Shown: positions 2,286-4,578 of the stretch, in pieces
Layout of the letters: every line of letters starts with the position of its first letter
How positions within the stretch are numbered: position 1 is the stretch's first letter
NCBI RefSeq assembly: GCF_900187275.1
Contig: NZ_LT906458.1
Coordinates: 1,830,001-1,862,000, forward strand
Reading direction: 5' to 3'
Origin: Pasteurella multocida
Lineage (GTDB): Bacteria > Pseudomonadota > Gammaproteobacteria > Enterobacterales > Pasteurellaceae
DNA: 32,000 nt
The notes under the pieces: model-generated
Told to the model about the DNA's origin: nothing
The model's input: the letters and a program-made list of their open reading frames with translations, nothing else
Databases searched by the model: none
Position numbers and translations under genes: made by a program

Positions 2286-3293
2286 TTATTGTGCTTGGTG
2301 ACTTTTTTCAGCAAATAATAACCCATAATATTTTTCAGCTTTTCCTACACCAACAACGTATTTTTTATCAGTTTTTTCTGCGTTGATAAAATTCAGCTCC
2401 ATTGCCATGTTGTCGGGTCCTGTAGGGGATAGTTTATGGGGATTGTCCTTGTGTGGTGTTATAGTTAAGTTTTGTCCTTCTCCTGAGAGCTGAAACAAAT
2501 CATCACGTCCTCTATTATATCTGTAGATTTCACCATAAATCTTGCCATTTCGGAAAGTAAGAGTCACATTGCCATACTGAGGAATATATTCTGAACCAAC
2601 TCGATTTACATCACTTAATACGGAATATATAAAACCATCTTCTTGATAATAAGTTGCAGTTAGTGCATTGAGGTTCTCATTATTTATTGCATCTGGTTTA
2701 ATTGCATAAATATAATTTTTTTCTACTTTTTTGTAATCTGCTGAAGGTTGTCCATAACTTCCATAATAAAATAAAGCGTCTTTTAACGTAAAGTTATAAT
2801 AATCCTCTTTATTCTCATTTTTTCCGTCAACTAATGATATTGTTTTACTTTGTGTTTTTGTTTTATCAAAAACTGGATCATCATTGTATTGAGAATTATA
2901 TTTTACGAAAGTGAATACCGTAACGTTATCTTTATCTACATTATTACTCGCATTTCCCACTTCTGAAACATGATAACCTGTCCAAGTGAGATTTTCTTGT
3001 GCAGGTTGGTTTTTTTCTTGTTCTAGAGGGGCTTTAAAGGAGGATTGTTGACTATTTTCTTTGGATGTGTCATGAGAAGACATTGAAAGTTTGTCATGAA
3101 GAGAATCATTCGTAGCGGTATTAGTAGGATTTTTGATTGGAGCGGAAGAAGGCTCACTATTTGATTGAACCGGTTGTGCTTTTTCCTCTACACGGTCAGC
3201 ACGATTTCCAGCGCTACCGCCACCGCCGCTACATGCAACTAATAATGAAGAGAGGGTCATCAATAAGCTTGTTTTTAAAACGATTTGTTTCAT
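2286..3293 (-). CDS. Putative Slam-dependent surface lipoprotein, TbpB-like C-terminal beta-barrel (SLP-1)
   Basis: 335 aa. Lipobox LLVA|C with Cys21, +2 Ser. A Gly4 run and a ~80-aa S/N/Q/E-rich low-complexity linker follow. The folded region contains ...ATYYQEDGFIYS...YGNVTLTFRNGKIYGEIYR...ELNFINAE...KYVVGVGKAEKYYGLLFAEKSHQAQ. This resembles the strand pattern and C-terminal (hydrophobic)-G-A-(E/K)-K ending I recall for the barrel domains of TbpB, fHbp and hemophilin. It is a paralogue of the next gene. RBS AAGGA lies upstream of the ATG. Confidence 0.7.
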   Translation of the reverse strand: MKQIVLKTSLLMTLSSLLVACSGGGGSAGNRADRVEEKAQPVQSNSEPSSAPIKNPTNTATNDSLHDKLSMSSHDTSKENSQQSSFKAPLEQEKNQPAQENLTWTGYHVSEVGNASNNVDKDNVTVFTFVKYNSQYNDDPVFDKTKTQSKTISLVDGKNENKEDYYNFTLKDALFYYGSYGQPSADYKKVEKNYIYAIKPDAINNENLNALTATYYQEDGFIYSVLSDVNRVGSEYIPQYGNVTLTFRNGKIYGEIYRYNRGRDDLFQLSGEGQNLTITPHKDNPHKLSPTGPDNMAMELNFINAEKTDKKYVVGVGKAEKYYGLLFAEKSHQAQ

Positions 3294-3490
3294 ATTTATC
3301 CTTGTACTGCCTAGATCAAAATATAGGTAACATCATATCCTTTATGATGCGGTGTTATTTTATCATTTTTTCTTTGTTAAGAAGGGATTTATTATTTTTA
3401 ATAAACAAGATCGTTTTATTTGCTTGGTTTTTATGCCGTTATTGTCTATGAATTATATTATTTCGTAACAGAGAGTATTTTTTAAAATAA

Positions 3491-3525
3491 GAAAAGATAA
3501 AAAAAGGCGTTTTTTAAACGCCTTT
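3491..3525 (-). terminator. Rho-independent terminator immediately after SLP-2
   Basis: Perfect 10-bp stem aaaggcgttt (3503-3512) / aaacgccttt (3516-3525) with a 3-nt loop. On the minus strand the hairpin is followed by TTTTTATCTTTTC. It lies directly downstream of the SLP-2 stop codon (3532-3534). Confidence 0.8.
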
Positions 3526-3531
3526 TATCTT

Positions 3532-4578
3532 TTATTTACCCGTAGAGTTTTCTGCTGGTTTTTCATCTGATTTTTCAGCGGCTAATACTCCAATCCATGT
3601 TTCGGCTTTAGCATTACCGAAAAGGTACTTGTGATCAGCTTTTCCTTTTTCTGAATCAGCTAATATATAATTAAGATTAGCTTTATCCCCTTTTTTAATT
3701 GTACCGAGAAGATGTTCTAAGACAGGTTCAATAGTTGAACTACCATGATTACCTTTTTCTATTTTAAAAATTTCTTCTTTGTTAGTTTCTCGACTATTGC
3801 CATTCTCAGAGCGATAAATAGAACCTGATATACTACCGTTGTCATAGAGAATATTCACATCACCATAATTTATTAAGCCATTATTAGATAATTCCGTATT
3901 ACTAATAGGCGCATAAATAAACCCTTTTTCTTTTTTATAATAAGCCTTGAACTGAGTAGATTGGTCTGGGCTTTTAAAATCCGTATTGATGGCATAAAGT
4001 AATTCCACATTTTTATGCGCGCGACTATCATCAATATTGTGACGATAACCATAATAGCCTACTTCATTACCATCACTGCCTAATAAAGTAAATTTATACT
4101 CCACTCCTGAATTATCACCTAAGTTAAGGGTGATATGTTCTGGCTCTTTTTTATATTTATCTGGTGTACTACTGTTTCTATCAGCATTTTCCACATGTTC
4201 TAGTTTATAAACCGTTACATGATTTTTATTTTCATTTTTTGCAGCACAAACCGATTTTGCCTCACAAGCGCCTTCCCATTTTTCTTGTGCAGAAGGAGGG
4301 GACATTCCCATACTGTCATTTGCAGGTGGTGCAGGTGGTGCAGGTGGTGCAGGTGGTGCCTCCTTTGCGCCAGTATCTGGTGCTTGGTTTTTAGGTGGTG
4401 CCGGTATATTTGGTGCAGCATCTGGTTGTTGATGCGCTGGTGGTGCAGGTTGAATCGGCTGTACTGGTGGAGGCGCATTGTTTCCGCCATTGCCGCTACC
4501 GCCACCACCGCCACCGCAAGCGATTAAAAGGCAAGATAATCCGAAGACAGTTGTTAATTTGATGATTGCTTTTTTCAT
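3532..4578 (-). CDS. Putative Slam-dependent surface lipoprotein, TbpB-like C-terminal beta-barrel (SLP-2)
   Basis: 348 aa counted from the MKKAIIKL start at 4578 (RBS AGGGAA upstream). The ORF track extends to 4596, but that adds MYREYT ahead of the signal peptide. Lipobox LLIA|C with Cys21, then Gly6 and a ~75-aa Pro/Ala-rich linker that includes (APP)x4. The folded region aligns by eye with SLP-1: HVTVYKLEHV / NVTVFTFVKY, YKFTL / YNFTL, KAYYKKEKGFIYAP / ATYYQEDGFIYSV, YGDVNILYDNGSISGSIYR / YGNVTLTFRNGKIYGEIYR, and the C-terminus KYLFGNAKAETWIGVLAAEKS / KYVVGVGKAEKYYGLLFAEKS. Confidence 0.7.
   Translation of the reverse strand: MKKAIIKLTTVFGLSCLLIACGGGGGGSGNGGNNAPPPVQPIQPAPPAHQQPDAAPNIPAPPKNQAPDTGAKEAPPAPPAPPAPPANDSMGMSPPSAQEKWEGACEAKSVCAAKNENKNHVTVYKLEHVENADRNSSTPDKYKKEPEHITLNLGDNSGVEYKFTLLGSDGNEVGYYGYRHNIDDSRAHKNVELLYAINTDFKSPDQSTQFKAYYKKEKGFIYAPISNTELSNNGLINYGDVNILYDNGSISGSIYRSENGNSRETNKEEIFKIEKGNHGSSTIEPVLEHLLGTIKKGDKANLNYILADSEKGKADHKYLFGNAKAETWIGVLAAEKSDEKPAENSTGK
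4321..4359. repeat. In-frame 9-bp tandem repeat (tgcaggtgg x4 plus partial) encoding (Ala-Pro-Pro)n in the SLP-2 linker
   Basis: Four exact consecutive copies at 4321-4329, 4330-4338, 4339-4347 and 4348-4356, followed by a partial tgc. Confidence 0.95.

Follow-up and report, generated by a model that had tools for sequence, protein, structure and literature searches.

The plpP-plpE region of a Pasteurella multocida Slam island and its paralogous surface lipoproteins

Described surface lipoproteins and the identity of SLP-1 and SLP-2

The surface lipoproteins (SLPs) TbpB, LbpB, HpuA, fHbp, NHBA, and HphA have in common a lipidated N terminus, a handle domain, and a C-terminal eight-stranded barrel. 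In Pasteurella multocida Pm70, a gene cluster composed of an SLP (PM1514), a Slam protein (PM1515), and "two other SLPs" (PM1517 and PM1518) was described by Hooda et al. in 2017 (PMC5449769). The P. multocida SLP fIbp (PmSLP-1) binds ruminant complement factor I (PMC12080921). Here we analyzed a 32,000-nucleotide stretch of P. multocida DNA (contig NZ_LT906458.1, positions 1,830,001 to 1,862,000; "the window"), in which a sequence-only reading had pointed out two lipoproteins, SLP-1 and SLP-2, at positions 2286 to 4578. This region very probably consists of plpP and plpE, which encode two of the three paralogous SLPs in the Pasteurella Slam island, acting by the mechanism proposed below.

Both minus-strand lipoprotein open reading frames (ORFs) were recovered where that reading had placed them. 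SLP-1 (positions 2286 to 3293, minus strand; 335 amino acids [aa]) was identical in all residues to PlpE of Pm70 (PM1517; AAK03601.1/Q9CKT9), which occupies the same locus between plpP and rsmD and shows no difference from it. The same PlpE sequence occurs on 129 contigs. SLP-2 (positions 3532 to 4578, minus strand; 348 aa from MKK) likewise lies upstream of plpE and next to ftsY, as PlpP (PM1518; AAK03602.1) does. Its identity to P. multocida proteins encoded at this locus was 91%, which is inside the interstrain range of 72 to 98% similarity reported for the highly variable PlpP (dN/dS, the ratio of nonsynonymous to synonymous substitution rates, of 1.13; PMC3660278). Identity to 24 PlpP alleles ranged from 68 to 95%, and identity to Pasteurella oralis proteins named "lipoprotein PlpP" in UniRef ranged from 43 to 47%. 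SLP-2 is an allelic variant of PlpP with four APP repeats, compared with approximately one to three in other alleles. An AGGGAA Shine-Dalgarno motif 7 nucleotides (nt) before the ATG at position 4578 makes the upstream ATG (position 4596) the less likely start of SLP-2.

Both genes are real and expressed in related strains, and both are already known: they have been named and mapped to the Slam cluster, and PlpE has been extensively characterized. The sequence-only reading had described the pair as Slam cargo of unknown function. The assignment to Slam cargo agrees with the fold described below, while the suggestion of something new does not stand: SLP-1 is PlpE, SLP-2 is PlpP, and their cluster has been reported (PMC5449769). 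For SLP-1, we found a full-length match to a characterized SLP with a reported ligand, as well as a nonsense codon in plpE of a near-identical strain, two observations that the reading itself had listed as counting against its proposal.

In the literature, PlpE corresponds to pm1517 and PlpP to pm1518 (PMC3390355 and PMC3660278). Hooda et al. (PMC5449769) called PM1517 and PM1518 PlpD and PlpE, whereas PMC3390355, PMC3660278, and GenBank use PlpE and PlpP; the former naming is probably a labeling slip. PlpE has been studied as a protective antigen since 2007. It is surface exposed and was the sole protective antigen of 71 tested, and a plpE mutant was fully virulent in mice (Hatfaludi et al. 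2012; PMC3390355). According to a 2026 paper, PlpE binds the host protein ABCF2 with a dissociation constant (KD) of about 1 µM and promotes adhesion, with Asp123 as the key residue (PMC13529201). This residue is Asp122 in the PlpE of the window; the numbering of the paper suits a 336-aa allele. The proteome reported for outer-membrane vesicles of other (yak) isolates lists PlpP (PMC13113515). For subunit vaccines against fowl cholera, bovine respiratory disease, and hemorrhagic septicemia, PlpE and the PmSLP proteins are leading antigens. The PlpE of P. multocida was named for its weak similarity to two protective lipoproteins, PlpE of Mannheimia haemolytica and OmlA of Actinobacillus pleuropneumoniae; neither of these names was found among the 20 clusters of the SLP family (see below) for which names were looked up.

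Paralogy, fold, and proposed Slam-dependent display of PlpE and PlpP

The proposal that SLP-1 and SLP-2 are diverged paralogues, made from an alignment by eye, was borne out by BLASTP (29% identity over the full length; E value of 6e-26), which places the relationship far beyond chance. Each protein begins with a signal peptide and a lipobox containing Cys21 (LVAC in PlpE and LIAC in PlpP). The linkers are unrelated, as had been noted from the sequence. That of PlpE is rich in S/N/A/E/Q and reaches approximately residue 103, whereas that of PlpP is 29% Pro and 18% Ala, includes (APP)4, and extends to approximately residue 100. A handle and a barrel follow in both proteins (eight strands in PlpP). 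PlpP also carries a Gly run after the lipobox, encoded by a perfect 9-nt tandem repeat (positions 4498 to 4515); another perfect 9-nt tandem repeat (positions 4321 to 4359, minus strand; 4.3 copies by Tandem Repeats Finder) encodes (APP)4.

A cysteine pair, C105/C111, is encoded where the folded domain of PlpP begins (WEGACEAKSVC; codons at positions 4246 to 4266, minus strand). Within the window it is confined to SLP-2, in line with the earlier observation. Both cysteines were invariant in all 25 PlpP alleles, and a C-x4-7-C motif was present at this position in approximately 24 of 57 family members and absent from the classical PlpE and PmSLP clades. The pair marks a subfamily, and classical PlpE has lost it. 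C105 and C111 probably form a disulfide loop at this site.

Neither Pfam nor NCBIfam provided a family for either SLP. Weak matches to "fusolisin" and "GltJ" were rejected, as they are confined to the signal peptide and the low-complexity linker. By phmmer, PlpE and PlpP matched PmSLP-1/fIbp with E values of 4e-16 and 1e-3, respectively. A profile search with the folded domain retrieved 64 clusters among 1.84 billion representatives, and all of the named clusters belonged to Pasteurellaceae. Members of this SLP family have a strongly conserved folded core.

AlphaFold2 models were built on the alignment from the family profile search and had mean confidence scores (predicted local distance difference test, pLDDT) of 92.8 for PlpE and 90.2 for PlpP. 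When these models were compared with the PDB using Foldseek, a check proposed in the sequence-only reading, the top hit for both was fIbp/PmSLP-1 (9b3h_B/9b3e; E values of 2e-13 for PlpE and 1e-12 for PlpP), with target-normalized template modeling (TM) scores of 0.80 to 0.83. The next ranks were occupied by TbpB C-lobes, NHBA, fHbp, and HphA, all with a Foldseek probability of 1.0. The models thus give PlpE and PlpP the handle-plus-barrel fold that is canonical for Slam cargo. They differ from TbpB, LbpB, HpuA, fHbp, NHBA, and HphA in sequence (7 to 17% identity; TM scores of 0.3 to 0.6), and whereas TbpB and LbpB have two lobes, PlpE and PlpP have a single lobe and no adjacent TonB-dependent receptor.

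A lipobox signal peptide, a predicted eight-stranded barrel, and a nearby Slam gene, the features by which Slam cargo is recognized, were found for both proteins. The Slam protein encoded at positions 54 to 1583 is the presumed translocon for PlpP, PlpE, and PmSLP-1, and we infer that the display of PlpE and PlpP depends on it. In the mechanism that we propose, each precursor would be exported by the Sec pathway, lipidated at the lipobox Cys21, and transported to the outer membrane, from which the neighboring Slam protein would move it to the cell surface. The disordered linker of approximately 80 residues would then keep a single TbpB-C-lobe-like module (the handle and the eight-stranded barrel) off the membrane, and this module would bind a host protein directly, without a TonB-dependent receptor as a partner.

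Several points weigh against this interpretation. Slam-dependent display has been demonstrated for PM1514 (PmSLP) only, in Escherichia coli (PMC5449769), and a study using TraDIS (transposon-directed sequencing of insertion sites) still calls PlpE and PlpP "putative SLPs." Strain VP161 needed neither plpE nor the plpP homologue nor slam in mice (the TraDIS study; PMC3390355 for plpE), so any host-binding function would be nonessential or host specific. ABCF2 is mainly cytoplasmic according to the same single paper that claims its binding by PlpE (PMC13529201), which makes its role as a physiological surface ligand uncertain. Lastly, the protein collection searched did not contain the exact PlpP sequence of the window, and the name PlpP was assigned from position and from alleles of the locus.

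Candidate ligands and the question of a receptor partner

The third SLP gene of the island, which the sequence-only reading had missed, encodes PmSLP-1/fIbp. Its ATG is at window position 29, and its first 29 nt (positions 1 to 29, minus strand; MQYFDIKKS...) are followed by the remainder beyond the left window edge. The presence of this start codon indicates that the window edge cuts a three-cargo Slam island. In another of the loci compared (labeled L001, L002, and so on; L001 to L005 are among the P. multocida loci, and L001 is CP199421.1), a 338-aa protein with the start MQYFDIKKSL is encoded after slam (L002:11555-12571) and matched fIbp in PDB entry 9b3h at 3e-205. The factor I-binding P. 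multocida SLP that the earlier reading had mentioned is this fIbp, the closest solved relative of both SLPs.

fIbp resembles PlpE and PlpP as a paralogue from the same Slam island with a lipobox, a long disordered linker, and no receptor partner. It differs from them in sequence (only 23 to 30% identity), in its factor I contacts, and in the lack of a cysteine pair such as that of PlpP. As the closest solved structure and the closest characterized homologue, it raises the question of whether PlpE, PlpP, or both are extra factor I binders, which would recruit factor I to degrade C3b and C4b as fIbp does. We regard this as very unlikely, mainly in view of the binding interface. Ten hydrophobic residues of fIbp contact factor I (PMC12080921), and their numbering was verified on the locus sequence (10 of 10 residues matched at an offset of 20). 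In the family alignment, none of the 10 was identical in PlpE and only 1 was identical in PlpP; many positions are charged or polar in these proteins, with several occupied by Lys, Asp, Asn, or Gln. Because the contact residues are not conserved, it is improbable that PlpE and PlpP bind factor I as fIbp does, even though they share its architecture, and factor I binding was rejected as a candidate function on this ground. In addition, PmSLP variants are themselves thought to differ in function (PMC12080921), and a different ligand, ABCF2, has been reported for PlpE (PMC13529201). PlpE, PlpP, and fIbp thus form one structural family served by one Slam gene, but with unlike faces at the position of the factor I interface, so their ligands probably differ. 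For PlpP, we infer a host ligand other than factor I.

No TonB-dependent receptor was found in the 32-kb window, as the sequence-only reading had stated: the largest ORF (538 aa) encodes phosphoenolpyruvate carboxykinase, and the other large ORFs had unrelated Pfam assignments. The survey of related genomes for a co-occurring receptor, which that reading had suggested, was negative for the island: among the 14 related loci inspected, none had a TonB-dependent receptor adjoining it. The nearest one belongs to the heme/hemoglobin family and is encoded outside the window, 5.4 kb past slam (L001:16942-19503); it is also present in Bisgaard taxon 45 (L010:15085-17643). Its proximity in the same genomes, together with the fold that PlpE and PlpP share with the TbpB C-lobe and HphA, would fit a role of these two proteins as hemophore-like or TbpB-like nutrient-capture lipoproteins that feed a distant TonB-dependent receptor, such as this one. 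We regard such a role as extremely improbable. Between the receptor and the island lie trmL and genes for a DUF535 protein, a GTPase, and a Mg-chelatase-like protein, which are unrelated housekeeping genes, four in all, on mixed strands, and in the near-identical strain CP199421.1 the receptor gene has an in-frame stop (L001:17875-17877) at a codon that specifies Trp in Bisgaard taxon 45. The likeness to HphA (8gmm_A) is weak (E values of 6e-3 for PlpE and 1e-3 for PlpP; TM scores of 0.35 to 0.44) and probably reflects only the generic barrel, and both proteins are single lobed, unlike TbpB and LbpB. The heme/hemoglobin-family receptor is regarded as unrelated to the Slam island, and a receptor-coupled function was rejected on the basis of synteny.

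Allelic variation and layout of the island

In the PlpP alleles (n = 25 aligned), which were mosaics of alternative blocks, the number of APP units ranged from approximately one to four, and the Gly run varied in length. As the repeat changes are in frame, they alter the length of the linker and do not switch the gene on or off. The plpE slot is occupied in some genomes by alternatives (P0003 and P0004) in which the first approximately 33 residues are those of PlpE and the folded domain is only 32 to 35% identical, and one P. multocida lineage has a single chimera (P0037) with a PlpP N terminus and a P0004-like C terminus. In P. oralis, six tandem SLP paralogues are encoded between ftsY and rsmD-slam (L012:3229-10693). 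A Q182* nonsense codon was found in plpE of CP199421.1 (window position 2750; L001:8834), and a 93-aa C-terminal fragment of PlpE is annotated on 21 contigs; truncated plpE alleles therefore circulate. The PmSLP-1 gene of CP199421.1 is also split (255 plus 89 aa). The mosaicism of PlpP and the interchangeable alleles of the plpE slot matter for vaccine coverage. As a separate observation, the position that PmSLP occupies in window-type strains holds a HigB/HigA-like toxin-antitoxin pair in L003 to L009.

Such variability could also mean that PlpE and PlpP serve mainly as variable immunodominant decoy antigens or as a surface coat, with no specific ligand. The full fitness of mutants in mice, the mosaic alleles of PlpP with a dN/dS of about 1.1, and the unrelated, chimeric, and nonsense alleles in the plpE slot are all consistent with this explanation. 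We nevertheless consider it unlikely, since strong conservation marks the folded core of the family, a specific high-affinity ligand exists for the paralogue fIbp, and a binding partner and an adhesion phenotype have been reported for PlpE (PMC13529201). A possible alternative, which we put forward tentatively, is that PlpP is a ligand-diversified fIbp paralogue that captures some other serum or complement protein of the host, as PlpE may also do beside or instead of binding ABCF2. The ftsY-slam island would then be a multicargo module for host interaction, and cassette-like exchange of alleles would refill its slots. Hints in favor of this reading come from the shared first 33 residues joined to folded domains of approximately 33% identity, the chimeras, and the six copies in P. 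oralis.

The genes of the island are arranged in the order plpP, plpE, rsmD, slam, and PmSLP-1/fIbp, with rsmD alone separating the two SLP genes from slam. The housekeeping gene rsmD (positions 1633 to 2235, minus strand) encodes a 16S rRNA m2G966 methyltransferase (TIGR00095, 1.8e-69; PF03602), and slam (positions 54 to 1583, minus strand) encodes a homologue of PM1515 (PF04575 SlipAM, 2.9e-113; PF24575 TPR_Slam, 6e-34). Both lie downstream on the same strand, whereas ftsY, ftsE, and ftsX lie upstream of plpP in the divergent orientation. The spacer between plpP and plpE is 238 bp. An intrinsic-terminator-like hairpin with an 11-bp stem and a T run (positions 3502 to 3526, minus strand) is located 6 nt past the plpP stop codon, and plpE has its own AAGGA Shine-Dalgarno sequence before the ATG. 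These elements suggest that plpP and plpE are transcribed as two separate units.

The window was 99.98% identical to P. multocida CP199421.1 and JBPWWQ010000019.1 across 11.58 kb. The position of plpP next to ftsY was the same in L001 to L005, and in P. multocida genomes the Slam protein was identical and had the same surroundings. An island consisting of one or more SLP genes next to ftsY, rsmD, slam, and a further SLP gene is kept in four Pasteurella species, including Bisgaard taxon 45, Pasteurella canis, and P. oralis. A contig scan with a single peptide pattern returned five loci and missed P. multocida itself.

Three plus-strand ORFs (positions 3137 to 3451, 4164 to 4394, and 4219 to 4527) were rejected as antisense artifacts of the repeat-rich linker. 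Repeat scans of positions 1 to 5000 revealed nothing besides the coding 9-nt repeat, and an Rfam scan found no RNA family within the window. Farther along the window, an ORF of at most 252 aa (positions 24872 to 25630, minus strand) had no Pfam or NCBIfam match; it lies in a low-GC stretch (34 to 37%) and shows a signal-peptide-like N terminus and an outer-membrane-protein-style C terminus (...SIGYKF). Other genes of the window include pckA, hslO, zwf, and pgl. Positions 7898 to 22879 hold a 4-hydroxyphenylacetate catabolic cluster with hpaB/hpaC, genes for an AraC-type regulator, fumarylacetoacetate (FAA) hydrolase-family proteins, a LigB-type dioxygenase, an HpaI aldolase, and two aldehyde dehydrogenases, and tripartite ATP-independent periplasmic (TRAP) and major facilitator superfamily (MFS) transporter genes.

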